From an uncultured Gammaproteobacteria bacterium (GTDB lineage: Bacteria; Patescibacteriota; Microgenomatia; JALYQM01): a stretch of 64,000 nt of DNA. Position numbers and translations under genes: made by a program. The first letter of the stretch is position 1. Every line of letters starts with the position of its first letter. A model generated the notes under the pieces. The model was not told the origin of the DNA. It saw nothing but the letters and a program-made list of their open reading frames with translations, and searched no databases. Location of the stretch: positions 520,630 to 584,629 of the forward strand of contig CAYOFQ010000001.1 in NCBI GenBank assembly GCA_964403585.1. The letters run 5' to 3'. Below are positions 2,831-50,605 of the stretch, piece by piece.

Positions 2831-3610
2831 TTGCGCTCTGATCTTCCATTTGCGGATAAAAATCACGGATTTACCTTTCAACTATCCCCACTGCTCTTTC
2901 AAAATACCGGAACCCATCGACTTTTCGCGTATGGTATAGACAGCGCTGGTGGCGCAAACCCGCAGCTGTCCGGGAGTCCATACACTTTTACCTGGGTTAG
3001 ACCGAGTCCGTCCCCAAGCCCGTCCCTTTCACCATCCCCAAGTCCAACACCGACACCTACTCCATCACCATCACCAACACCAACCAGATCACCATCGCCT
3101 ACGCCCACCCCCACACCGGTGGCCTATGGCTGTGAGAATCAGAGCTTCTATAGCGTCAACTTATCATATCCGCACACCAAAGCCTGCTTCTTTGTCCCAA
3201 ATCTGATGTATGATCAGGAAAATCGGTTTAATATTTTCCATATCCCTACTAACTATTCTGTACGGTTCCCATTTGTGCGAACAGAAAATGTAGGCATCAA
3301 AGAGGATCGAAATCTGCAGTGGTCAATAACCTCTCAAGTAGCAGGTCAGGTTTTTGTTATGTACCGTAAAATTCCCGGCCAGGTTCCACCTGGTTGGATT
3401 ACAGATAAATATCAGAAAATGACCACTGATGACTGGTCAAATTTAAATCAATATGTGTTACGCAAAAACGAACTTGGATTGATCGGTGTATACGATATCT
3501 ACCGAACAACGATGAACGGCCCAAACACGACAGTGGAATTTGGCCCCGCATCAGATAATAATGTAACGGCATTCTCAATGTACTTAGTCGGAATCAGTCC
3601 CGGTTTATAA
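2831..3610 (+). CDS. Same reading frame as 1913-2761, continuing past the TAG. Encodes the tail of a GWxxDPD..VHIYxD-type domain, a PS/PT-rich linker, and a C-terminal 'YRKIPGQ' domain.
   Basis: Same frame as the upstream ORF. The track start at 2831 is a TTG. RSDLPFADKNHGFTF aligns with RSDLTAEKANHAFNW of the 3698-5941 product. The C-terminal 145 aa match the N-terminal domains of the 12253-14022 and 42121-43569 products. Confidence 0.45.
   Translation: MRSDLPFADKNHGFTFQLSPLLFQNTGTHRLFAYGIDSAGGANPQLSGSPYTFTWVRPSPSPSPSLSPSPSPTPTPTPSPSPTPTRSPSPTPTPTPVAYGCENQSFYSVNLSYPHTKACFFVPNLMYDQENRFNIFHIPTNYSVRFPFVRTENVGIKEDRNLQWSITSQVAGQVFVMYRKIPGQVPPGWITDKYQKMTTDDWSNLNQYVLRKNELGLIGVYDIYRTTMNGPNTTVEFGPASDNNVTAFSMYLVGISPGL
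3001..3120. repeat. Low-complexity tandem tract encoding a Pro/Ser/Thr linker (SPSPSPTPTPTP...)
   Basis: The ccg/tcc/aca/cca codon periodicity is visible directly in the sequence. It generates spurious His-rich and Gly/Asp-rich ORFs in the other frames. Confidence 0.8.
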
Positions 3611-12252: not shown

Positions 12253-14022
12253 CTATTGGTGTGTCCAGTCTGTCCAGGACATATTTTTTCCACCGCCACC
12301 GGTGGCTTTCGTCGGATAATGCTGACCGTAGGCTTTATTGATTACCCAAGTAACCCAGGGCTCGTTATTCATCCATTGTGAGCCGAACTGTTGAGATAAA
12401 TAGTACTGGTAATCCAGTGTCCGCAGGGGAGCGTTATTCTGTATGAAGTAGGCAGGATATCCCGCACGGGATAATAATTCTGCCTGCATAATATATCCTT
12501 GCATACCTTCCCACGGGTATTGAGTATATCCCGGAGGCCAGCTAAACGCGCCGCCTCTTCCTTGGTCATTTACAATTGCACCATCAATCTTATGGCCATT
12601 TTTAATTGATCCCGCCGGGTTCACAGCAACCTGTTTGGACGAATCGGTAGTATATGACCACGAAATACCATTGTCATTCAGGTTTGGACGGCAGCTCGGA
12701 CACTTGGTCACATCACCGGAATACCGCTGATAGGTTTGCCAAGCTTTTTCAACTTCGGCACTATCCCCGAGATAGAGCGCTGCAGCAATCCGAGCACCTC
12801 CGGCGAGCGCGTCCCCGTTACTTGAACCATTATCATGAGATTCACTTAAGTTATATTCGGGAACACTTCCGTTGTTCCGGCAATTCTTTTTATACCTGAT
12901 ATAGTTAACATAATTTGCCCAGCGGGTACCTTCATTGCCGTCCGTACCAGCTCGAAGATTGATAATATCTGCGGCAATAATATAACTCGGCAAATTTCGG
13001 GATAGAGCCAGCGAGCGGGCTTTGCTCGGCGTAGTTTCACAGTCTGCGTCCCGGTTGGCATCAGTACCGATTGCTGACAAAATCGCCGCAACTGCCTTCG
13101 CACGATATGCCTGGTCTTTAGTTTTTGCCGCAACTAAGGCAACTGCCAAAGTGCTCTGATCATGCTGTGAATTCTGGTCGGCCAAATTAGCGCTTCCAAT
13201 CGAACTGTCGGCCCTTGATTTAAGATCATTCCAGGCTTGACCACTTGCCGGCAACCGGTCAATATCTGCTTGAGAAATCCAAATTCCGGTTTTTACCTGG
13301 CCTGAAGGGAGGGGAGTTTGAGCTGTCGGCACGACTGTCGGCAATTGCGTCGTAGAGCGGGGAGAAACACCAACTATATACATCGAATACGCTTCTCCGG
13401 TTTCCGAATACGGGGCTCCAAAGGTTACAACTGATGCACTGGAAACAGCCTTTTGGTAAATATGATACACACCAATCAACCCCTGTTCATTTTTTCGGAG
13501 CATAAACGGTTGTAAATTGGCGTATGAATCACTGGTAACTCGGGTATATGAGGAAAGCCAAGCCGGAGCCGGTTGACCGGGAATTTTACGATAGAATACA
13601 TAGACATCCGCAGGTTGGGTGATGGTCACATTCCAGGAGAGCAGATGATTCGCTTTGAGTGACACATTTTCGGTACGGATAAAAGCTACCTGTTTCGCCT
13701 GCAGCGCCGTTGGTGTGCTGAAAAAAGTAAACCGGTTATCTCCGAGATACATCACTGCTCCAGGCGTTAAACAGCCGACTTGAGTCTCATATGGGGACTG
13801 AGAAGCAAAAGATATCTGTCCAATGGTATTAAGTGTTGCTTGGGTACAGGGTATGGTTTGGGCAGAGGAATTATCCTGGGTGCGAATAGTAAAAAGGCTG
13901 TTATTCTTAACTATACCCACCACCAGTAATGTGAGGACGAACGTCATTGAGCCAATCTTTAATAATGTTTGTAACGCTTCGGTACTACGCATAAAAATCT
14001 TCTGATTATTATTAAGTACCAA
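12253..14022 (-). CDS. Secreted/anchored protein: N-terminal 'YRKIPGQ' domain, PT linker, large C-terminal domain of unknown function (possibly a carbohydrate-active enzyme)
   Basis: Signal/anchor MTFVLTLLVVGIV. FYRKIPGQPAPAW..FMLRKNEQGLIGVYHIY matches the 3176-3610 and 42924-43359 domains. The true start may be the internal Met (MRSTEAL..) near 13992. Confidence 0.7.
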   Translation of the reverse strand: MVLNNNQKIFMRSTEALQTLLKIGSMTFVLTLLVVGIVKNNSLFTIRTQDNSSAQTIPCTQATLNTIGQISFASQSPYETQVGCLTPGAVMYLGDNRFTFFSTPTALQAKQVAFIRTENVSLKANHLLSWNVTITQPADVYVFYRKIPGQPAPAWLSSYTRVTSDSYANLQPFMLRKNEQGLIGVYHIYQKAVSSASVVTFGAPYSETGEAYSMYIVGVSPRSTTQLPTVVPTAQTPLPSGQVKTGIWISQADIDRLPASGQAWNDLKSRADSSIGSANLADQNSQHDQSTLAVALVAAKTKDQAYRAKAVAAILSAIGTDANRDADCETTPSKARSLALSRNLPSYIIAADIINLRAGTDGNEGTRWANYVNYIRYKKNCRNNGSVPEYNLSESHDNGSSNGDALAGGARIAAALYLGDSAEVEKAWQTYQRYSGDVTKCPSCRPNLNDNGISWSYTTDSSKQVAVNPAGSIKNGHKIDGAIVNDQGRGGAFSWPPGYTQYPWEGMQGYIMQAELLSRAGYPAYFIQNNAPLRTLDYQYYLSQQFGSQWMNNEPWVTWVINKAYGQHYPTKATGGGGKNMSWTDWTHQ

Positions 14023-14054
14023 CTTGCGTTAAAGTGCAATAACAAAGGTCACTG

Positions 14055-14085
14055 TTGACAGAACAATATACGTCCGACGTACTAT
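14055..14085 (+). promoter_or_regulatory. Candidate sigma70 promoter for the 14114 gene (TTGACA, 19 nt spacer, TACTAT)
   Basis: A -35 consensus hexamer. The atatacgt..actatag element is shared with the promoter of the paralogous downstream gene. The spacer is long. Confidence 0.3.
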
Positions 14086-14113
14086 AGTAGTATACAGTTA
14101 AGTATCTTAATGT

Positions 14114-16585
14114 ATGGTGCCATCTTTTTTTCGTACAAATTCAGGGAGAACGAAATTCGCTTTTGCCATAGCGGTACTCTTGTTTGTCGGAGTATTTATC
14201 TACAATGGTAAGCTGTCTCCGGTCCAAAGTACCAGCTGCGGAGCCAACTGCTCCTTAAAAGAAATCGGTACTATCGACGGTCTGGGTAATTTTTCCACTA
14301 CGCCAACACTAATAAAGGACCAGCCGTATTGGGTTCGACTCACTATCAACGGCCAGGACAATCTGGTTGCTACACCTGGTCCAACTGCCACACCTGCGCC
14401 AAAGGGTGTAGACACAATGATGTACATTGACCTTTCTTCTAGTATGTTAGAAAATTATCCGAAATATAATCCGGATAACGGGACGGATGTTATCATGTAT
14501 CAGGCAGCTCAGACTGCTTTGAATAAATATATTGACTCTTCAGATCAGGCCAATGATTATCTTGGGTTTGGTACCTTTACCTGGTGTATTAATTACAAAA
14601 ATTCCGCCACACCCGTTTGGTGGTCTTACGACGACTTTAATCGGGGTGATGGAAAAATGGTCGGATTCAGTGCCGTACATATTCCGTTGCGCCCCATGGC
14701 CAATAACCCCAACTATTATAAAAACATTATTAACAGTATTACCTTCAACGGTGATGATGCCGATTTTTGTGCCGGAACCGGTCTTTCGCATGAACCAACC
14801 TCCAATGGTGGACCATACAATACGACAGGAGAGTTTCACGGAGGCACCTCAATTGGTGGGGCAATCACCGGAGCAAACACCTTCCTTACACCAATACTTA
14901 ATGATCCAAAAGCGAAGCGCAAAGACGGTACCAGCTATCGGGACAGTGTCAAAAGTAAGAATCTTTCTACCTATAACCGTAATATGGGACCATATGCCCG
15001 CCAGTACACAACCGGGGCGGCTATTCCCAAGTATATTATTCTTGCCACCGACGGCGGAGAAGGGGTACCGCCGTTAGTTACTGATGAGGATATCGATCAC
15101 AATACCCGCACTATAGTACAGAACGCGAAGCAACATGGTGTAAAAATATTTATGGTTATCACCAGAAGACAAAGCAGCCTATCTGCTAATGGAATCGCCA
15201 GAATTAACTATATCACCGGTACTACCGGAGGTAAGGCCTATTACGGCAATTCTGAGCAGGAATTAGTTGCTAATTTTTCCAACATCCGCACCGATATCGT
15301 TGAGGATTCTAATGGTGGTGCTATTCCTTCCGGCACACCGGTTGCCAAAACCGACATCACCGTTACCGAAAAGGTCAATGCTTCGTATTTCAAAATCGAC
15401 GAACCCACGCATAGTACTCCGATTACCTTTAAAGTCGGGCAGCCTGGCTCACCTGAAACAGATATCACTAATTTGATGTGTAAAGACAGCAACTCGGATA
15501 CCGTGCCGGACTGTGTCAGCAATAAAAAGTACAACGCTTCGGGCAATCTGATCGGCTATGATGTAACGCTCGATCCAATCGGTTTCGGCCAAACCCGTTA
15601 CATTTATTTCAGAGTAACCCCAACTAAGTCTACCGGAGGACTCTCCGTTCCGGTCGATGAAGACCCGACCAGTGTCATCGACTATGAGGATATTCCCGCT
15701 ACCGTCAATTTGGATAACGTTAGTGTCGTTATCACCGAGGCCAGTCTGTTCTTTCAGGTATTCGGTGGAGGCGATGTCTATTCGGCATCAAATGATGTGA
15801 CCAAATCTATTTATTCATTCCTTCCCGGATCAACAGACCTCTTCAGTTCGGTGGCTAATGTTGTTTTTCATCGGGGAGGGGCAACCTATGGTAACGGAAA
15901 AGTTAATTCGAAAAACAGGGAAGTTGACCCGTATGCAATTACCTATGATCCGGTACAAATGAGCTATAACACTTTATATAACGAATACAGCAAGTTAATG
16001 CCGGCAAGTAATATTAAGAACATTTCCGGTCTTTCCGATTTCACTACCTCCGGCTACTACATGGATAACACCAGTACCAGCAATGGTAAATTTGAGATCA
16101 AAGGAGCAGGCTGGACCGGACAAAATTTGCAGGGCAAAAAAATCGTCATGTTTGTTCCCGGCAATCTATACATCAGTACTAATTTTTCCGTCGAGGATGA
16201 CGGAAATAGTTTACTTGTGTTTATTGTTAAAGGAGATGTCGGTATCGATCCCGACGTAACCAATGTTCAGGGTGTCTATATTGTCGACGGGAAAATAGAT
16301 ACTGCCTGTAAATCGTCATCCTCCTTCAACGCCGCCAACAGTTGTTCGCCGGATGCCGGAGCGAACGGTACCGAAAAACAATTAACGCTGGAAGGCATGT
16401 ATATAACTAATTCCATCGATCCGCTGACCAAAGGATATAACGGGTTAGCGGGAGGATTCCTTTTGGATCGCAAGCCTACAACTGCTATTCCCGGTGAACG
16501 GTTTATATACCGTCCCGACTTCATCATGAGCACTTCGTTAAGTATTGGCCGCAAAAGCTATACCTGGATCGAAAACACACAATAA
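14114..16585 (+). CDS. Large membrane-anchored extracellular protein with a VWA domain (tandem paralog 1)
   Basis: N-terminal TM helix. MIDAS-like DLSSSM, with ATDGGEG later. 823 aa. Co-linear similarity to the 16643-18967 product. Confidence 0.8.
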   Translation: MVPSFFRTNSGRTKFAFAIAVLLFVGVFIYNGKLSPVQSTSCGANCSLKEIGTIDGLGNFSTTPTLIKDQPYWVRLTINGQDNLVATPGPTATPAPKGVDTMMYIDLSSSMLENYPKYNPDNGTDVIMYQAAQTALNKYIDSSDQANDYLGFGTFTWCINYKNSATPVWWSYDDFNRGDGKMVGFSAVHIPLRPMANNPNYYKNIINSITFNGDDADFCAGTGLSHEPTSNGGPYNTTGEFHGGTSIGGAITGANTFLTPILNDPKAKRKDGTSYRDSVKSKNLSTYNRNMGPYARQYTTGAAIPKYIILATDGGEGVPPLVTDEDIDHNTRTIVQNAKQHGVKIFMVITRRQSSLSANGIARINYITGTTGGKAYYGNSEQELVANFSNIRTDIVEDSNGGAIPSGTPVAKTDITVTEKVNASYFKIDEPTHSTPITFKVGQPGSPETDITNLMCKDSNSDTVPDCVSNKKYNASGNLIGYDVTLDPIGFGQTRYIYFRVTPTKSTGGLSVPVDEDPTSVIDYEDIPATVNLDNVSVVITEASLFFQVFGGGDVYSASNDVTKSIYSFLPGSTDLFSSVANVVFHRGGATYGNGKVNSKNREVDPYAITYDPVQMSYNTLYNEYSKLMPASNIKNISGLSDFTTSGYYMDNTSTSNGKFEIKGAGWTGQNLQGKKIVMFVPGNLYISTNFSVEDDGNSLLVFIVKGDVGIDPDVTNVQGVYIVDGKIDTACKSSSSFNAANSCSPDAGANGTEKQLTLEGMYITNSIDPLTKGYNGLAGGFLLDRKPTTAIPGERFIYRPDFIMSTSLSIGRKSYTWIENTQ

Positions 16586-16599
16586 TTCCGCTCAGCAAT

Positions 16600-16629
16600 T
16601 TGACATGCCATAAGAAATATACGTACTAT
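16600..16629 (+). promoter_or_regulatory. Candidate sigma70 promoter (TTGACA, 18 nt spacer, TACTAT) for the 16643 gene, with a near-leaderless geometry
   Basis: Hexamers read directly from the sequence. The -10 ends 13 nt before the ATG at 16643. No Shine-Dalgarno sequence is visible. Confidence 0.4.
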
Positions 16630-16642
16630 AGAAATACCAGTT

Positions 16643-18967
16643 ATGTATAAAAAAATTTTCCTCTCCCTGAATGCGCTCTTGTTCCTCACCATCTTTGTCT
16701 ATTTAGGTAAAACAACTTTCGTGAAGGGAGCGAACTGTGCATCTAACTGTACGACCAAAGAAATTGGGACGTTAGGAAAAGATGCATTCGGCCGGGATGT
16801 ACTTAATCCGGTTGATCCGGTCGCCGTCAATAAATCTTACTGGGTAAAGCTTTCGGTGAAAGGCCAGGACACAACTACTTCCACGATCCCAACTGCCTTA
16901 CCGTCACCTACTACGACTACTATCTCATACGGAAGCGACATTATGATGATGTTGGACACCACTACCAGTATGTATGACAGTATTCCGGTAAATGCTGATG
17001 GTAGCGGCGGAACCGTACTTACCTATGAGGCTGTTCGTGATGGTATGGTGCGAATGGTTAATCTTTCCAGTGATCCGCTGGACTATTTAGGCTTTGGGTC
17101 ATTCCGCCTCTGTCGCGGGTATACTTCTACTACCACACCTGTTTGGTGGGTATACGAAGACTGGAACCGGGCTGATGATGGTTACCGTGGTACAAGCGCC
17201 ATCCACCTGCCACTACAGCCTTTAAATGGGCGAAAAACACTTTTTACCAATACCATTAACAGCATCACTATTTTAAATGACAGCGGTAAAAACAATAACT
17301 TCTGCCGTAGTTCCGGTGTTGACTCCAACGGCTTTCATGGCGGTACCAGTGTCGGTGCCGCGATTACTGCTGCCGATACACAGTTAACTCCGATTCTCAA
17401 CGACTCCAAAGCAGTACGCCGGGACGGCTCCAGTTATCGTGACTCAACAAGAGTCGGAATCAATGGCTATAACGATGGTCCCCGTACTCGATTCGGAGTT
17501 CCGAAGTACATCGTATTAGCCACCGATGGCGGAGAAGGCGCCCCACCACTTATCGATGACCCTGATATCGATAAAAACCTGCGGAGTGCCTTGCAGACTG
17601 CAGCCCACTATGAAATAAAAATTTATGGCATCGCCTTTAGCCGGCCCGGTAATAACGATTATCAGAAATTGGAAAGAATAACTACCACTACCGGAGGAAA
17701 AATCTTTGCGGGTAATTCAAGGCAGCAAATTCTCCAGTCCGTGGAAGCGATCCGTAACGAAATAACCAAGGAATCGCAGGGCACTCCACCGCCATCCCCA
17801 TCACCTTCATTTTCAACTACCGGTTCAACTGCCACCATTAATGAACGAATCAATAGTTCTAATTTTTCAATTTCAACAATGAATAACACAACATTCAAAT
17901 TGATTAAGCGTAATACGGACGGGAGTGTCACTAATATCACGTCTACTTGCGGCTCCGGTTTAGCCGCCTGCTTAAGTAATGCCTCCAGCGCCGGATTTGA
18001 TTTAAAGCTGCCGCAAATCGGCTCGAATGAAGAAATATATGTCTACTTTATGGTCACCCCGACCACCGCCAGCGATCCCGGGCAAAAAGTACCGGTCGAC
18101 AAGGATCCTGACAGTATCATCAAATACTCAAACGGGCATCAGGAGAATATCCGTAACGTTCAAGTAGGCGTTGTTGCCAATAAGCCGTATTTTGAATCCC
18201 AGAATGGCGGCGATATCCACACCCGCGGCGGGCTGCTCGTTGATATGCCGGATACGTATAAGTTTATCCGGGGTACCTACCCGGGTATTTTAAGTTACGG
18301 CGGCAGTGCTGTGGTAAGGCCCAACAATAATCAATTGAGCAGTAAAAACTGGAAAATCGGCGGCGGCTCTCCGGGATACCAGGTAAACGCGCAGAAATAC
18401 ACCTATCAGGCACTCCTCGCAACTATCAAATCAAAGAAAACTATTACCAGTCTATCTCAGATAACCGGATCCGGTTTTTACGTAGTAAACGGAGATCTTA
18501 CTATTAATAGTACCAATAAGCTGCCTAACTTATTGACTTCAACTCAGCAAATTGTGCTATTTGTCAATGGAAATGTGTATATTCGAACAGCTATTCCTCT
18601 TTTCGGCAATCCGAATAATAAATCGTCTCTGGCTATCATCTCTTCTAAAAACATCGGCATTGATCCGGCAGTCAGTGACCCCGGGGGCACCATCGCCGGG
18701 ATCTATATCGCTGACGGCGTCATCGATACAGCCTGTTCGGGCACGTTCTCCTTTACCCAGTGTACTCCCGGAGCACCAACCTTGCATAACTCATCACTGA
18801 CCCTGGAAGGAATGTTCCTGGCTGCCTCGGGTTTCAATCTGGACCGGTACGGAACTCCGGACGTTCCGGCCGCCGGCGAGAAATTTATCTATCGTCCGGA
18901 ATTGTTATTAACCGCTGCACCACAACTTGGGTCGCTTTCATCGGTATGGCAGGAGATATCGCCTTAA
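16643..18967 (+). CDS. Large membrane-anchored extracellular protein with a VWA domain (tandem paralog 2)
   Basis: N-terminal TM helix. MIDAS-like DTTTSM, with ATDGGEG later. 774 aa. Paralog of the 14114-16585 product. Confidence 0.8.
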   Translation: MYKKIFLSLNALLFLTIFVYLGKTTFVKGANCASNCTTKEIGTLGKDAFGRDVLNPVDPVAVNKSYWVKLSVKGQDTTTSTIPTALPSPTTTTISYGSDIMMMLDTTTSMYDSIPVNADGSGGTVLTYEAVRDGMVRMVNLSSDPLDYLGFGSFRLCRGYTSTTTPVWWVYEDWNRADDGYRGTSAIHLPLQPLNGRKTLFTNTINSITILNDSGKNNNFCRSSGVDSNGFHGGTSVGAAITAADTQLTPILNDSKAVRRDGSSYRDSTRVGINGYNDGPRTRFGVPKYIVLATDGGEGAPPLIDDPDIDKNLRSALQTAAHYEIKIYGIAFSRPGNNDYQKLERITTTTGGKIFAGNSRQQILQSVEAIRNEITKESQGTPPPSPSPSFSTTGSTATINERINSSNFSISTMNNTTFKLIKRNTDGSVTNITSTCGSGLAACLSNASSAGFDLKLPQIGSNEEIYVYFMVTPTTASDPGQKVPVDKDPDSIIKYSNGHQENIRNVQVGVVANKPYFESQNGGDIHTRGGLLVDMPDTYKFIRGTYPGILSYGGSAVVRPNNNQLSSKNWKIGGGSPGYQVNAQKYTYQALLATIKSKKTITSLSQITGSGFYVVNGDLTINSTNKLPNLLTSTQQIVLFVNGNVYIRTAIPLFGNPNNKSSLAIISSKNIGIDPAVSDPGGTIAGIYIADGVIDTACSGTFSFTQCTPGAPTLHNSSLTLEGMFLAASGFNLDRYGTPDVPAAGEKFIYRPELLLTAAPQLGSLSSVWQEISP

Positions 18968-37582: not shown

Positions 37583-39805
37583 ATGAAAACGCAAACAATC
37601 CCCATCCTGGGGATGCACTGTGCATCATGTGCCGTGAGCATCGAACGGAAATTAAAAAAACTTCCCGGGATGCAAAGTGCTGCTGTAAACTATGCCTCAG
37701 AAAAAGCTGCGGTGGAATATGATCCTTTATCCTGTGATGAAGAAAAAATCGCCAGCACGGTCAAAAGTTTAGGATATACTGCGGTAATCGAAAGCCCGGT
37801 TGATACATCGGATGTTGTCGAAAAAGTAAAACGACAGGAACTTTCACAGCTAAAAACAAAATTAATCATCAGCGGAATACTTACAGTTTTCATTTTATTG
37901 GGAAGCTTTCCGCAAATATTCAGAATAACTCCAGCATTTTTGCAGGACCCGGTTTCACTGTTTGTGTTAGCTGTGCCGATTCAGTTTGTTATCGGATGGC
38001 AGTTTTATCGCAGTACCTATGCCTCATTAAAAAACCATACTGCCAATATGGATACATTAATCGCCTTTGGAACTACAGCGGCATTTCTATTTTCGACCGT
38101 CATGACTTTTTTCCCCGGAATAATGATGGAGTATGGTGTGGAAGGACATTATTTTGATGTTTCTTCACTGGTAATAACTTTGATTCTTTTGGGAAATTAT
38201 TTCGAATCGAATGCCAAGGGAAAAACGGGTCAGGCCATAAAAAAGTTACTTAATCTGCAGGCAAAAACAGCCAGGGTGATGAGAAACGGCAGCGAAATAG
38301 ATATTCCAATCGCACAGGTAATTATTGGTGACCAGATTATCGTACGGCCGGGGGATAAAATCCCTGTTGATGGCACAATTTCCGAAGGGCGAGGCACAAT
38401 TGATGAGTCAATGGTTACTGGCGAGTCATTACCAAAAGAAGTCTCCGCCGGAGAGGCAGTGGTTGGTGGCACGATCAATACGAATGGTTCATTTACCTTC
38501 GCGGCGACGAAAGTAGGCAGTCAAACGTTACTCTCCCAGATTATCGCACTGATCGAAAGTGCACAGAGTTCGAAAGCGCCCATGCAACGACTCGCCGACA
38601 CCATTTCATCCTACTTCGTTCCGATTGTACTGATGATTGCGGTCTTTACGTTTATGATTTGGTATGTAATCGGACCTGAACCACGATTATTATTCTCCGT
38701 GCTTAATGCGGTTGCTGTACTGGTAATCGCCTGTCCCTGCGCCATGGGATTGGCAACACCGACCGCAATTATGGTAGGCACTGGTAAAGGCGCTCAAAAC
38801 GGGATATTAATAAAAAATGCCGAAAAGCTTGAAACAGCGCACAAAGTCACCACCTTTATCTTTGACAAGACAGGCACATTAACAAAAGGTAAGCCGTCTG
38901 TATCTGAGGTAAAAATATATAATAATGCAGACGAAAATGAAGTACTAACCGCAGCGGCATCGCTAGAAAAAAACTCAACACATCCCCTGGCTGAAAGTAT
39001 TGTGCGCTATGCCCAATCAAAGAGCCTTGCATTGATAGCAGTCTCCGATACTCACTATATCCCGGGGATGGGGATCCAGGGTACAGTTGAGGATAAAGAA
39101 GTAGTTATTGGCGAAAAAATTATTCATCAAAAAAATATCGACTACTCTGCAGTTGTTTCGGATATAATCTTGCTGCAGTCACAAGCCCAAACAGTACTCC
39201 CGGTAGCAATTAATCAACAAATTGTTGGCTTAATCGCCATTTCGGACCCTGTAAAAGAAGAGTCATCCAAAGTAATTTCTCAGCTACACAAGTTAAAAAT
39301 AGAAGCTATCATGCTGACAGGTGATAACGAAAAAACAGCTGAGGCTATAGCCGGGAAAGTTGGTATAAAAAAGTTCATTGCCAATGTTCTCCCGCAGGAT
39401 AAAGAAAACGAAGTAAGAAAGCTGCAGCAACAAGGAAAAATTGTTGCCATGGTCGGGGACGGTATTAACGACGCACCTGCCCTGGCTGCTGCTGATATTG
39501 GTATCGCCATGGGTTCAGGAACAGATGTTGCCATCGAAACTTCCGACATCGTTTTGCTTGGAGGTGATATAAGTAAATTACCGCAGGCCATACGTTTGTC
39601 TAAACAGACAATGGCAACCATTAAACAGAACTTGTTCTGGGCCTTCGGGTATAACGTTATTTTAATACCGGTTGCTATGGGAGTACTGTATCCGGTGTGG
39701 GGTATGTTGCTTAATCCCGTTTTGGCATCAGTCGCAATGGCTCTAAGTTCAATTAGTGTTGTAATGAATTCGTTACGACTGAATTTAGTAAAATTAAACA
39801 AATAA
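37583..39805 (+). CDS. copA: Copper-translocating P1B-type ATPase
   Basis: HMA domain GMHCASCAVSIE. CPC motif ACPCAMGLATP. DKTGTLT and GDGINDAP motifs. 740 aa. Confidence 0.95.
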   Translation: MKTQTIPILGMHCASCAVSIERKLKKLPGMQSAAVNYASEKAAVEYDPLSCDEEKIASTVKSLGYTAVIESPVDTSDVVEKVKRQELSQLKTKLIISGILTVFILLGSFPQIFRITPAFLQDPVSLFVLAVPIQFVIGWQFYRSTYASLKNHTANMDTLIAFGTTAAFLFSTVMTFFPGIMMEYGVEGHYFDVSSLVITLILLGNYFESNAKGKTGQAIKKLLNLQAKTARVMRNGSEIDIPIAQVIIGDQIIVRPGDKIPVDGTISEGRGTIDESMVTGESLPKEVSAGEAVVGGTINTNGSFTFAATKVGSQTLLSQIIALIESAQSSKAPMQRLADTISSYFVPIVLMIAVFTFMIWYVIGPEPRLLFSVLNAVAVLVIACPCAMGLATPTAIMVGTGKGAQNGILIKNAEKLETAHKVTTFIFDKTGTLTKGKPSVSEVKIYNNADENEVLTAAASLEKNSTHPLAESIVRYAQSKSLALIAVSDTHYIPGMGIQGTVEDKEVVIGEKIIHQKNIDYSAVVSDIILLQSQAQTVLPVAINQQIVGLIAISDPVKEESSKVISQLHKLKIEAIMLTGDNEKTAEAIAGKVGIKKFIANVLPQDKENEVRKLQQQGKIVAMVGDGINDAPALAAADIGIAMGSGTDVAIETSDIVLLGGDISKLPQAIRLSKQTMATIKQNLFWAFGYNVILIPVAMGVLYPVWGMLLNPVLASVAMALSSISVVMNSLRLNLVKLNK

Positions 39806-47426: not shown

Positions 47427-48572
47427 ATGAATAAATATGTCTCGCTCTCCTTCATTGTCCTCATTGTTATCGCGGCGTTAGCTGGCGGATATTATTTAGG
47501 TATGCGGCAGTCCCGCCCGGAACAAAACCCAACAGTCTCTCAAAGAGATTCTGCTCCGACTTCTCCAGATTCAGCAACTGAAGAACAATCTGCTTCATCA
47601 GAGTCTGCCACGGTGACCACCGCCACTCCCAAAGCCAGATCCTCCATTAATATGAAAGCGTTGCCGCTCGGCGACAACAAAGTTACCACAACTCCCAAAG
47701 TGGGATATATCTATTCCTGCCAAAAACAGTCGGACGAAAACGGTGGTGGAGCGGGTGTTGATGGTCCATGGATTAATAAAACAACCAATACCTGGGATTA
47801 CACACAAAAAGTAACCGTGAGCGGAGAAGTAATCTGGAAAAATGCCAAGTGGAGTGTTACAGAAAATGGAGCAACCCGAACACTTACAGGAAACGGATTG
47901 CCCTCACATAAAACCGGCACCTATCCTATTCAATCATCAGACGATGCATACAAGTACGATCGCAACCCGAACTCTATTAAAGAACAAACACTGAGTCTGA
48001 ATCTCCCCACCACTCCTACCCAACTTGCTTCAGCTGAATGTGTGGGCGGAGAAGTCGGCATTATGCTCACAGGTATACCGATTTTTAACGGCTTCGATGC
48101 CGATAGCCGCGATGCTGCCGCTCATGAAATTCAGGACGACTGTGCTGGCCACCCGCAGGTAAGCGGTCAATATCACTATCACAGTCCAAGTAAATGTTTG
48201 AAAGACACTCCTGCCGCTACCGAGCACTCCGCCCTCGTTGGCTACGCCTTTGACGGGTTCGGAATATACGGAATTAAAGGACAAAACGGTGTTGAACTCT
48301 CCACACAGGATCTGGATGTCTGTCATGGTCATACGCATGAAATAGTGTGGGACGGTCAAAAGAAAACCATGTACCATTATCATCTCACCAATGATTTCCC
48401 GTATAGTGTTAGCTGTTTCCGCGGCAAAAAAGCAGTCAACGGCCCGCTTAGCGGTAAAACCGAGGGTATGCAACAGGGCGGACAGCAATCCGGTCAGAGC
48501 CAAATGTCCGGCCAGGGTCCCGGCGGGCAGCGCATGCCACCACCTCCGGGCGGTGCTCCACCTCAAAATTAG
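47427..48572 (+). CDS. Secreted YHYH-motif protein with a Gln/Gly-rich C-terminal tail
   Basis: Signal anchor. GQYHYHSP, HGHTHE and YHYHLTNDFPY motifs. C-terminal QQGGQQSGQSQ..PPPPGGAPP. Confidence 0.6.
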   Translation: MNKYVSLSFIVLIVIAALAGGYYLGMRQSRPEQNPTVSQRDSAPTSPDSATEEQSASSESATVTTATPKARSSINMKALPLGDNKVTTTPKVGYIYSCQKQSDENGGGAGVDGPWINKTTNTWDYTQKVTVSGEVIWKNAKWSVTENGATRTLTGNGLPSHKTGTYPIQSSDDAYKYDRNPNSIKEQTLSLNLPTTPTQLASAECVGGEVGIMLTGIPIFNGFDADSRDAAAHEIQDDCAGHPQVSGQYHYHSPSKCLKDTPAATEHSALVGYAFDGFGIYGIKGQNGVELSTQDLDVCHGHTHEIVWDGQKKTMYHYHLTNDFPYSVSCFRGKKAVNGPLSGKTEGMQQGGQQSGQSQMSGQGPGGQRMPPPPGGAPPQN

Positions 48573-48605
48573 AGAAAAGTCCAACAAATCTATATCCTAT
48601 AGTAA

Positions 48606-48634
48606 TTGACAAAATGATAAAGTTGTGGTATTAT
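48606..48634 (+). promoter_or_regulatory. Near-consensus sigma70 promoter with an extended -10 (TTGACA, 17 nt, TGgTATTAT)
   Basis: Hexamers, spacing and the TGn element read directly. Downstream is a ~420 nt leader with no credible ORF before the ATG at 49054. Confidence 0.65.
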
Positions 48635-48677
48635 GGGCAGTAACATCACGCTCAAAAACGCGCACCTTTACAACTGA

Positions 48678-48699
48678 TTTTTCTCAGCAAAGAGACATA
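48678..48699 (+). repeat. Direct repeat R1 copy 1 (tttttctcagcaaagagacata)
   Basis: An exact 22-nt match recurs at 48843-48864. Confidence 0.8.
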
Positions 48700-48709
48700 G
48701 TTACTAATT

Positions 48710-48792
48710 CCGTTCGCTTCACCCTACACAACATCGAAAAACCGCGCCGCCCCTCAGACTTGCTCTATTTACTATGTTTGTTTGGTGAGAAA
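48710..48792 (+). repeat. Direct repeat R2 copy 1 (~80 bp, about 70% identical to 49673-49751)
   Basis: Shared blocks ccgtt..cgcttcaccct and cgc.ccgcc.ctcagacttg.tct.tt..tatgttt.ttt..tgagaaa. Confidence 0.7.
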
Positions 48793-48842
48793 GATCAGTG
48801 TTGGTGTACTACACGAATTAATCTGCCCTTTAAAAACTACAT

Positions 48843-48864
48843 TTTTCTCAGCAAAGAGACATAA
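48843..48864 (+). repeat. Direct repeat R1 copy 2
   Basis: Exact repeat of 48678-48699. Confidence 0.8.
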
Positions 48865-48937
48865 TACACGTCTTCTGCTTCGATATCCGTCTCGAAAAGC
48901 AGGAACAGTATCTATAACTCTCTTGCTCTTAATGGAT

Positions 48938-48994
48938 GTATCAGGACGCACCTGCAATTGAGAACGTCACTCGATTTCACATGCGTCCTGATAC
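48938..48994 (+). promoter_or_regulatory. Perfect 13-bp inverted repeat (gtatcaggacgca / tgcgtcctgatac) with a 31-nt spacer in the leader upstream of the 49054 ORF
   Basis: Read directly from the sequence. Candidate RNA hairpin or dimeric regulator operator. Confidence 0.5.
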
Positions 48995-49053
48995 CAACCC
49001 AGCCCAAACTATTGTCTTCCGAAACCAACAAAATTCAAAGGAGGAACACCACG

Positions 49054-49656
49054 ATGACCACCGCCCAAGCCCTAACCGCACTGGCGGACTACACGCTCGC
49101 ACCGACGTTCATCAACTATGTACTCAGTCAGGTTTCCTATCCTGACCAATACACCGCGGATTCCCTGGAGCCGATGATGGCGTTGCTCGAAGATCACTTC
49201 CGAACGAGAACATCAATCTCGTTCAACGGGATCTTTGCCAGAGCAGCAATCGCGGCCCTCGAAATGGAAGTGTGTGGCGACACCGGAATGCGGACATCCA
49301 AAGGTAAAAGCCCATACATCTTCGAGTTCGACGGCGGTTACACCCGTCAAGTCACCATCTGGATGCCGCGTTCGAACATGTCGGCCTTCATCGGCGAAGA
49401 CGGACGGACAATCCGCCCGATCCAAGTCGCCCTTGAAAGGCTGAGTGTTTTGCTCAAGGTTGAAGAGTTCGTGGGGTTCGGCCCGTACGTGAGTGTTTCT
49501 CAACAACACTTCGCCTGGCGGGTCAGCCTTGAGCCGGTTCCGGAACGTCATCACGGCCCGAAGTACGCTATTCTTGACCAGAGTATCGGCAAAGTCGCCG
49601 CGTTCGCCGCACAAATGGCCGAACGTAACGGCTTTCGCCCTGTCATCTGGGAATAG
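49054..49656 (+). CDS. Hypothetical protein encoded by a GC-rich (apparently foreign) ORF
   Basis: RBS AAAGGAGG lies 9 nt upstream of the ATG. GC and codon usage (GCC/CGC/GGC rich) are visibly higher than in flanking genes. TAG stop. The ORF is bracketed by repeats R1 and R2. Confidence 0.6.
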   Translation: MTTAQALTALADYTLAPTFINYVLSQVSYPDQYTADSLEPMMALLEDHFRTRTSISFNGIFARAAIAALEMEVCGDTGMRTSKGKSPYIFEFDGGYTRQVTIWMPRSNMSAFIGEDGRTIRPIQVALERLSVLLKVEEFVGFGPYVSVSQQHFAWRVSLEPVPERHHGPKYAILDQSIGKVAAFAAQMAERNGFRPVIWE

Positions 49657-49672
49657 CAGTCACCATTCATAA

Positions 49673-49751
49673 CCCGTTCCGCACCCGCTTCACCCTTGAT
49701 CACCGCTCCGCCTCTCAGACTTGTTCTTATTATGTTTCTTTATTGAGAAAA
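49673..49751 (+). repeat. Direct repeat R2 copy 2
   Basis: Imperfect copy of 48710-48792, located immediately after the GC-rich ORF and upstream of the 49778 gene. Confidence 0.7.
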
Positions 49752-49777
49752 ATCCCCAAACGTTCTACCATCGCAGT

Positions 49778-50134
49778 ATGAACACAACAACCGAAATTCC
49801 GGATATTTGCCCGGCGTGCCAAACATTAAACCACCCATCCGATACGTTTTGTTCGAAGTGCGGCAAACAACTGCACGAGTCGGCGCTCTCAACCACACCG
49901 TCAAAACAAATAATAATTTATCTCGTGAGCTTTTTCCTCGCGCCTTTCGGACTGTGGTGGGGGATGAAATATCTTCGTTCAGCAGATAAAAAAGTTAAAA
50001 GAATCGGCATTATTTCAATTATCTTAACCGTGCTCGCCCTGCTCCTCTCGGTAGCCCTGGTCGGGTCAATTATGAATACGGTTAATAGCCAACTGAATAC
50101 CAATATCGAGCAATATAACAGTCTTGGCATTTAG
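49778..50134 (+). CDS. Zinc-ribbon plus two-TM membrane protein
   Basis: N-terminal CPAC..CSKCG ribbon, then two hydrophobic helices. The ATG at 49778 is preferred over the track's upstream alternative start. Confidence 0.55.
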   Translation: MNTTTEIPDICPACQTLNHPSDTFCSKCGKQLHESALSTTPSKQIIIYLVSFFLAPFGLWWGMKYLRSADKKVKRIGIISIILTVLALLLSVALVGSIMNTVNSQLNTNIEQYNSLGI

Positions 50135-50224
50135 GTGATTAGGGCGTACAATAGCATAATCACCCGCACCTTATAACAAAGTAACACAGGCAGCTGCTAC
50201 TTGGCTGTCATCTTTTTTGCGCAT

Positions 50225-50605
50225 ATGTTGAAAACGTATAAAACTTTTTATTCATTCATGTTCCGTTACAAATGGCGTTTTATCGCCTTTGTAATAACCT
50301 TAATTTGCTATTCCGTTGCCGGAAGTATTCAGCCGTATTTTTACAAACTGTTTTTAGATGCGATACCTGACAAAAATTACGATGTGCTGCTTAATATTCT
50401 GATCATGTTTATCGGGCTGCGCATTCTCCAGGTATTTCTGGATATGGCCACCTATTATTTAAGTGACGTGGTAACCTTTGCTGCCGGTCGTGATGCCCGG
50501 ATAACCATTTTTAAAAAAATCCAGGATTTGGACTTTGCTTATCATGCCAGTAAAAGTACCGGAGCATTGATCAGTGCCGTAAAAAGAGGAGATGGTGCTT
50601 TTTAA
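50225..50605 (+). pseudogene. Truncated N-terminal fragment of an ABC exporter (MsbA-like transmembrane domain)
   Basis: ABC_membrane helix 1-3 pattern (YKWRFIAFVITLI..FYKLFLDAI..RILQVFL). Stops after 127-134 aa. No ATPase domain follows. Confidence 0.5.

Follow-up and report, generated by a model that had tools for sequence, protein, structure and literature searches.

We describe here a locus at positions 48606–49753 of a 64,000-nt stretch of contig CAYOFQ010000001.1 (assembly GCA_964403585.1; the whole stretch is called the window below), in which an orphan open reading frame (ORF) of 200 codons is bracketed by reverse-complementary 26-nt sequences. We propose, with a probability of about 0.4, that this locus is a lineage-restricted, promoter-driven, self-folding mRNA module for a fast-evolving orphan protein, and that its repeats R1 and R2 act mainly in the sense RNA. 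The full module (R1, leader, ORF, and R2) is known from two genomes, that of the window and an unclassified bacterial metagenome-assembled genome (JALYQM010000022.1, hereafter L005). The architecture is unusual and undescribed, and the data show no classical mobile cassette. The initial annotation of the locus had interpreted it as a GC-rich cargo gene acquired horizontally into a duplicated R1-R2 element. This interpretation is partly supported, while the inverted complementarity of R1 and R2, the predicted upstream promoter, and the covarying leader hairpins point to a role of the repeats at the RNA level.

R1 is an exact 23-nt direct repeat, and its two non-tandem copies (48677–48699 and 48841–48863) are 164 nt apart. 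When up to three mismatches were allowed, three R1 matches were observed, and 0.00 were expected from dinucleotide shuffles of the window; the third match is on the minus strand, within R2. The duplication of R1 noticed in the initial annotation is thus real, with the coordinate given for its second copy off by 2 nt. R2 is a diverged repeat of about 95 nt with a 31-nt core that is 84% identical between the copies. A profile hidden Markov model recovers it at 48698–48796 (E = 1.3e-24) and at 49658–49754 (E = 6.4e-22), which confirms this second duplication, although diverged, as well. No further copies of R1 or R2 were found within the 64-kb window. In the following, unit 1 is the upstream pair of repeats and unit 2 the downstream pair with the leader and the ORF. 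Alignment of the unit-1 spacer with the 3′ untranslated region (UTR) of unit 2 gave z = 8.8 (0 of 2000 shuffles). R2 (49657–49753, plus strand; conserved core CGCC(T/C)CTCAG) begins immediately 3′ of the ORF stop codon and hence makes up the complete 3′ UTR of unit 2.

The final 26 nt of R2, which we call R2b, are the reverse complement of R1. In unit 2, the second R1 copy forms the 5′ arm (48841–48866, plus strand) and R2b the 3′ arm (49728–49753) of the predicted closing stem. The two arms match at 23 of 26 positions and are the top-ranked inverted repeat of the window; two of the three differences are G·U pairs on the plus strand. Each unit should therefore be closed by a stem of 26–29 bp. 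Counted together, the window holds four R1/R2b sites, two per orientation, and none has strong internal dyad symmetry.

Unit 1 (48673–48799, plus strand) is composed of R1 copy 1 (48677–48699), R2′ (48700–48770), and R2b′ (48771–48799). Its closing stem of 27–29 bp (48673–48701 with 48771–48799) surrounds a C-rich loop of about 70 nt. The predicted fold energy is −35.9 kcal/mol (z = −5.05, 0 of 200 shuffles), and the mean pairing probability of the stem in the full transcript is 0.78. R1 copy 1 is unchanged although its partner R2b′ carries four changes. Between the units, one compensatory pair (G-C in one, A-U in the other) is located at the inner end of the stem. When both closing stems are considered, the positions without Watson–Crick pairing are G·U in 4 of 7 cases on the plus strand versus 1 of 7 on the minus strand. 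As R1 joins directly to the copy of the 3′ UTR, we consider unit 1 an ORF-less derivative. It appears to be a duplicate from which the leader and the ORF were lost and which persists in the form of a stable hairpin.

The sense RNA of unit 2 is predicted to be strongly folded. In a 926-nt fold, R1:R2b pairing closes both the minimum free energy (MFE) structure and the centroid structure. The 913-nt sense RNA lies 75 kcal/mol below its dinucleotide shuffles (z = −12.3), and the value for the antisense strand is z = −4.9. Of 12 equally long coding segments taken as controls, 11 ranged from z = +1.0 to −1.9, and one reached −5.7. The unit in L005 is likewise closed by R1:R2b (z = −5.9).

Between R1 and the ORF, the structured leader (48867–49053, plus strand) contains a variable hairpin at about 48875–48911, a box with the sequence CTCTCTTGCTCTT at 48919–48931, a 57-nt hairpin at 48938–48994, and the Shine–Dalgarno sequence (SD) GGAGG at 49040–49044. 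A consensus fold of the window and L005 leaders has 48 pairs, all formed in both sequences, and 12 of these show compensatory changes, with the caveat that the structure was derived from the very two sequences compared. Controls with slid partners gave at most two compensatory pairs. Five of the 12 are within the well-aligned 57-nt hairpin. The box is also predicted to pair with the center of R1 (48850–48859 with 48919–48927), with a probability of about 0.8 in every prefix of the transcript without R2b. Once R2b is present, this probability drops to 0, and R1:R2b pairing reaches 0.93 in the whole transcript from the predicted promoter P1. Because the pairing probabilities switch with R2b, R1 would have two partners that exclude each other, one available as the transcript grows and the other only at the end of synthesis. 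At gathering thresholds, Rfam gave no match in the window; two chance-level hits (E > 3) were obtained in 48560–49800. We also considered the leader region 48915–48940 as a duplicate of the R2 core, which would place the ORF between direct repeats. This candidate was rejected as the scores were at shuffle level (z about 0 in the window and 1.2 in L005).

Relatives were sought by pattern scans of genome, metagenome, and viral collections, and L005 was the sole true relative recovered. Its genome holds one match; the others match nothing past the 23–25-nt pattern. These others include two Lachnospira genomes and two metagenome contigs with 23–25 nt that match R1/R2b at 91–96% (L004 2846–2870, L006 276–300, L008 3279–3303, and L010 9057–9081), which we judge to be a chance match carried in one lineage. 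In L005, the order is R1, leader, ORF, and R2, beside an orthologous gene for a Zn-ribbon protein (56% identical). The 30-nt R1 of L005 is fully covered by the two window copies jointly: 26 nt are identical to copy 1 and 27 nt to copy 2, the latter as an uninterrupted run of 27/27. The leader of L005 retains several blocks, including the box, and both R1 and the box are identical to those of the window. R2b is identical at 25 of 25 positions across the window, L005, and a metagenome contig (L011) which was reached via its Zn-ribbon protein, while the Zn-ribbon proteins of these three are 56–71% identical.

Conservation of this setting bears on the origin of the locus. The initial annotation had argued against vertical ancestry, and it had named a conserved syntenic context in relatives among the findings that would refute the insertion. 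Such a context is present in L005, where R1, the leader, a remote homolog of the ORF, and R2 stand by the same Zn-ribbon gene. L011 is the closest available relative (Zn-ribbon protein 71% identical) and is nearer to the window than L005. In this contig, the stop codon of the YHYH gene is followed by about 10 nt, the 3′ half of R2, the promoter P2, and the Zn-ribbon gene; P1, unit 1, R1, and the ORF are absent. The segment between the YHYH stop and the 3′ half of R2 is missing, and thus there is an insertion/deletion polymorphism of about 1.1 kb exactly at this site. With L005, a lineage further removed than L011 has the module at this position, which implies either a loss in L011 or two separate gains at a single site. 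Unit 1 had been taken for an empty site in the initial annotation. In the real empty site of L011, R1 is absent and R2 is represented by its 3′ half alone; unit 1 is therefore not an empty site but is located inside the extra segment. More distant Zn-ribbon loci (L012–L019) have neither R1 nor R2.

Among close strains, the arrangement is uniform. The NCBI genome and two independent Logan assemblies (L001 and L002) are 100% identical across the segment and have a single orientation. A third Logan contig (L021), compared by gene order alone, has the same order as the window. Exact-protein look-ups in near-identical strains likewise returned only the window arrangement; the 118-aa Zn-ribbon product of the window itself is not on record in the collection used for these look-ups. 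In L005, unit 1 is not seen in the 148 nt before R1, which is the upstream sequence that was considered. This stretch had been a candidate for unit 1 through a weak resemblance, which neither alignment nor profile search confirmed.

P1 is a predicted strong sigma-70-type promoter (48606–48634, plus strand) with TTGACA, a spacer of 17 nt, and a TG-extended TATTAT (11 of 12 matches). It lies 34 nt past the YHYH stop codon, inside the segment absent from L011. A weaker promoter, P2 (49743–49771, plus strand), is predicted for the Zn-ribbon gene. Its −35 element TTGAGA is inside R2b, 5–10 nt from the outer end, and is followed by 17 nt and the −10 element TACCAT. P2 is conserved in the window, L005, and L011. 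From P1 onwards, no terminator-like site is predicted until 50189–50209, beyond the Zn-ribbon gene, so that transcripts started at P1 probably continue across R2 into it. An antisense promoter was not detected.

The Zn-ribbon gene (49778–50134, plus strand) encodes a membrane protein of 118 aa and was used as the syntenic anchor for locating related loci. In all three genomes, the −10 element of P2 (TACCAT or TACTAT) ends 6 nt before the ATG without an SD (window 49766–49780, L005 2644–2656, L011 597–612). For this reason, the Zn-ribbon mRNA, with its start codon at 49778 in the window, is probably leaderless.

The ORF (49054–49656, plus strand; suitably spaced SD at 49040–49044) is the strongest outlier in GC content, GC at third codon positions (GC3), and codon usage of the ORFs compared. 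Composition was compared with 51 other ORFs of the window and codon preference was scored for 49. The GC content is 0.561 (z = 4.8; next highest 0.505), GC3 is 0.667 (z = 5.9; next highest 0.533), and the codon-preference score is the lowest of all scored (z = −3.0). The raised GC and codon usage seen in the initial annotation is thereby confirmed. Its TAG stop, which had been listed along with these peculiarities, is ordinary in the window as 9 of 48 other ORFs end in the same way. The cassette-like horizontal insertion that had been deduced from these traits stands in part: the composition is foreign, and the segment is present or absent at this very site when the window and L011 are compared, but marks of a cassette mechanism are lacking and the context is conserved in L005.

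As the initial annotation had stated, the encoded protein has no recognizable motifs. It gave no match in Pfam (even at E = 10), NCBIfam, PHROGs, or PADLOC, and no DNA-binding domain was detectable. The product is a soluble-looking protein of 200 aa, neither a small hydrophobic peptide nor ToxN-like. A word-indexed search of 5.8 billion clusters returned the ORF itself only. An exhaustive HMMER search of 1.8 billion representatives returned the ORF and two long SprB-type repeat proteins, and a profile search recovered only the ORF and the L005 protein. No match was found in the phage and plasmid records searched for homologs. Hence, the homology search suggested in the initial annotation leaves the protein without relatives except for one remote homolog. 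The SprB-type matches cover residues 64–130 (about 49243–49443; E = 3e-14 summed over 14 repeats), and their E-values arise because many weak repeat matches are summed. In the PDB, a profile search gave one weak match (2gu1 residues 136–219, E = 0.0045). Residues 64–130 may form a small beta domain, for which these weak matches, without Pfam support, are leads only. The structure prediction had a mean pLDDT of 41, and the model is unusable.

The window and L005 proteins were not significantly aligned by BLASTP. In a Smith–Waterman alignment with the L005 product joined across an apparent frameshift, the score was 59 versus 28.5 ± 4.1 for shuffled sequences (z = 7.5, 0 of 1000), and the alignment is colinear across residues 36–138. 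From the score and the colinearity, it follows that the two proteins are remote homologs with about 25% identity. The L005 ORF, too, is richer in GC than its host (GC 0.508 vs 0.375; GC3 0.585 vs 0.340). An apparent change of frame occurs near a T-run after codon 150 (about 2900–2930, minus strand); past this point, similarity is found in the other frame up to a stop at 2801, and the GenBank annotation gives a 125-aa product (P0022). The frame change may reflect either a pseudogene or an assembly error.

Based on these data, we suggest the following course of events. From P1, a single RNA would be made that comprises unit 1, leader, ORF, and 3′ UTR. During its synthesis, the center of R1 would pair with the conserved leader box about 60 nt downstream. 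After synthesis of the 3′ UTR, R1 would move to the stronger 26-bp pairing with R2b, and the 913-nt ORF mRNA would be closed as a loop bounded by a long double-stranded RNA stem. This stem and the 27–29-bp stem of unit 1 have a size that RNase III could cut. As a likely outcome, the ORF mRNA would be either excised, or insulated and stabilized, apart from the read-through into the Zn-ribbon gene. R2b would be a pre-existing sequence that also holds the −35 element and the upstream part of P2. It may be frozen because of this dual role as stem arm and −35 region, and R1 may be frozen because it must match both R2b and the box. The identity of R1 and the box in the window and L005, despite an ORF at about 25% protein identity, supports the proposed RNA module.

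Several observations weigh against it. Both arms are identical in the only two genomes with the full module, and hence there is no covariation of R1 and R2b across genomes, the exception being the single pair that differs between unit 1 and unit 2. An identity of 25–30 nt on both arms exceeds what a helix needs, and sequence-specific recognition of DNA by a protein would account for it no less well. For R2b, its overlap with P2 and its conservation in L011, where R1 is lacking, explain this identity; for R1, having to match both a frozen R2b and the box does so only in part. The SD is about 85% paired locally in every predicted state, so the switch predicts no effect on translation, and we therefore claim no translational switch. 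The consensus fold pairs UUUCUC of R1 with GAGGAA at the SD, but the probability of this pairing is 0 in the window ensemble, and R1 was rejected as an anti-SD sequence. Inside the ORF, the RNA is predicted to be structured in the window (z = −5.2) and not in L005 (z = −0.8). In L005, the 148 nt available before R1 yielded no promoter. Finally, an RNA module leaves the raised GC3 in both genomes unexplained. A single protein with the same recognition sequence at R1 and R2b, be it a regulator, a recombinase, or a transposase, is a serious alternative.

Taken as a mobile element, now decayed or domesticated, the locus would comprise a gene-carrying copy (unit 2) with R1 and R2b as its 26-bp terminal inverted repeats and a derivative with an internal deletion (unit 1) resembling a miniature inverted-repeat transposable element (MITE). 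The right end would provide an outward −35 and create a hybrid promoter for the Zn-ribbon gene, and L011 would have kept this end after deletion. The imperfect inverted ends, the adjacent miniature with the same ends and subterminal 3′ sequence, the foreign GC and codon usage, and the presence or absence among relatives all agree with such an origin. The −35 is as close to the end of R2b as it is to the element end in hybrid promoters known from insertion sequences (IS). A truncated ABC-transporter gene nearby (described below) would fit as a local rearrangement. On balance, we nevertheless hold a mobile element to be unlikely. No target-site duplication exists at unit 1, unit 2, or L005, as the flanks share no direct repeat (CTTTACA and GTTGGTG for unit 1, AAACTAC and CCCCAAA for unit 2, AAAACCTG and GCCCTAG for L005). 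The ORF matches no family in the four databases, and there is no transposase among the 49 window ORFs scanned against Pfam. The window holds no second copy, the L005 genome gave a single pattern match, and none of the matches in other genomes or metagenome contigs is a true one. At the same site in two lineages, the ends are 100%, the ORF products about 25%, and the neighbors 56% identical, which is the opposite of what a recently moving element would show. Moreover, the leader hairpins covary in the sense strand, and the empty site in L011 retains the right end. If R1 and R2b are instead DNA sites of one sequence-specific protein, for example a regulator of the Zn-ribbon promoter or the ORF product, this protein could loop the DNA or co-regulate the ORF and P2, with the RNA complementarity as a by-product. 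The full 25–30-nt identity at both sites next to flanking proteins of 56–74% identity would be expected then, as would an R2b that overlaps the −35 of P2 and is kept in L011 without R1, and an R1 copy 1 that stays unchanged beside four changes in R2b′. Considering that the ORF product has no detectable DNA-binding domain (and its structure model is of no use here), that the sites lack strong dyad symmetry, and that the covarying hairpins, the R1:box pairing, and the wobble bias on the sense strand would be left unexplained, we rate this a rather small chance.

Less probable still are three further explanations. For a toxin–antitoxin or abortive-infection system under RNA control, the ORF would be an effector silenced by the fold-back of its mRNA, and unit 1 would be a protective or decoy RNA. 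The layout of promoter, non-coding repeat RNA, and ORF resembles type III toxin–antitoxin loci, the 5′–3′ fold-back resembles hok mRNA, the ORF is patchy and evolves very fast, and the SD is largely paired in every predicted state. The product has no PADLOC or Pfam match and is unlike both small hydrophobic peptides and ToxN, the repeats are non-tandem, unit 1 is not seen in the 148 nt upstream in L005, and the ORF there is seemingly frameshifted. We would be surprised if such a conflict module were the answer. Just as improbable to us is an exchange system in which hyper-variable, GC-rich orphan genes are swapped between two ultraconserved inverted sites of 26–30 nt, recognized by a hypothetical dedicated protein. 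R2b would be its docking site, the window and L005 would carry different alleles, L011 would be an empty site, and the leader would be part of the transferred unit. An inversion switch of the inverton or shufflon type would use a distally encoded recombinase to flip the 861-bp segment between R1 and R2b and so turn the ORF on or off relative to P1, with unit 1 as extra sites. Strictly conserved 26-bp inverted repeats around a gene-sized segment, a promoter outside it, and four sites with two per orientation would suit this design. Yet no invertase or tyrosine or serine recombinase was found among the 49 ORFs, only one orientation occurs in the three identical assemblies and in L005, the gene order in L021 is that of the window, and the leader is a conserved sense-strand structure. 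We give inversion little weight.

Should the proposed RNA module be correct, a bacterial mRNA would have its ends tied by a long, sequence-frozen duplex of which one arm is the promoter of the next gene, so that constraints on DNA and on RNA would fall on a single sequence. Here, non-coding sequence under strict conservation occurs together with a protein that is among the fastest to diverge in the region (about 25% identity vs 56–74% for its neighbors). Patterns of conserved flanks and fast proteins are usually tied to genetic conflict. At about 1.15 kb, the module is compact and easily testable in a heterologous host; a practical limit is that it occurs in two genomes only and that its protein has no recognizable fold or family.

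The 49 ORFs scanned are ordinary chromosomal genes, e.g., for topoisomerase I, ATP synthase, SecA, SerRS, GreA, a copper ATPase, two-component systems, and glycosyltransferases, and no integrase was found among them. Downstream of the Zn-ribbon gene, an ABC-transporter gene (50201–50605) is cut to 134 codons, with the N-terminal membrane part left (74% identical to L005). The L005 ortholog has 576 aa, and in the window, a PMT/GH8 fusion gene follows directly after the 134-codon remnant. The fragment looks like the remnant of a deletion. Elsewhere in the window, three adjacent large ORFs of 589, 823, and 774 aa (12253–18967) have no Pfam family at E ≤ 1e-5. The third of them (16643–18967, 774 aa, no Pfam match) contains an inverted repeat (17551–17573 with 18706–18728) and also the control segment 17000–17912 with z = −5.7, which differs from the 11 other controls. 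Within the copper P-type ATPase gene, a 29-nt inverted repeat (37598–37626 with 39047–39075, 76% complementary) is located around ATCCCCATCCTGGGGAT.

In comparison with known systems, the module lacks the defining features tested for IS and MITE, REPIN/RAYT, integron cassettes, and type III toxin–antitoxin systems, except for the terminal inverted repeats of IS and MITE. Integron cassettes are similar in that an orphan, promoterless-looking ORF of foreign composition comes with an imperfect palindrome and varies in presence among relatives. In a cassette, the ORF is followed by an intact attC site with the cores RYYYAAC and GTTRRRY. Here, the ORF stands between the palindrome halves, the sequence ends match neither core, GTTRRRY is absent, the module has its own predicted promoter, and no intI or integrase domain was found among the ORFs scanned. 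As in REPIN/RAYT or a MITE with its parent IS, a gene lies between inverted short sequences, and nearby, the same pair of sequences forms a hairpin of about 125 bp. REPIN/RAYT systems have tens to hundreds of REP or REPIN copies per genome; the 64-kb window and the scan of the L005 genome showed none besides this locus. The ORF has no HUH/Y1 or DDE transposase signature, and Y1_Tnp gave no Pfam match at E up to 10. IS and MITE have terminal inverted repeats like those seen here (26 nt in unit 2 and 27–29 nt in unit 1). The module differs from them by the lack of a target duplication and by the fact that one arm serves as a predicted promoter in the empty site. Type III toxin–antitoxin systems are set apart by the absence of a ToxN/AbiQ match in PADLOC and Pfam and by the repeats, which are two non-tandem copies.

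Closer parallels are found among mRNAs that fold back on themselves. The hok/sok mRNAs have a long-range lock between the 5′ and 3′ ends, and their nascent and full-length folds differ, as is predicted here. Toxins of the hok type are membrane peptides some 50 aa long and come with a cis-antisense RNA, unlike the soluble-looking 200-aa protein of this locus, for which we detected no antisense promoter. In Staphylococcus aureus, the 3′ UTR of icaR pairs with its own 5′ UTR, which creates a double-stranded substrate for RNase III and controls translation and stability (PMC3868564). In Bacillus subtilis, pairing of the 5′ and 3′ UTRs of hbs protects the mRNA from ribonuclease (PMC5737220). Like icaR and hbs, the module has a 3′ UTR sequence that is predicted to pair with its own 5′ UTR; the pairing is present in the MFE and centroid structures, has a probability of 0.93, and is predicted in L005 as well. 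Its duplex differs from theirs in being much longer (26 bp, nearly all of R1) and in its location at the far ends, where it would enclose the whole leader and ORF without pairing to the SD. In addition, its 3′ arm doubles as the predicted promoter of the next gene, and an ORF-less paralogous hairpin stands upstream.

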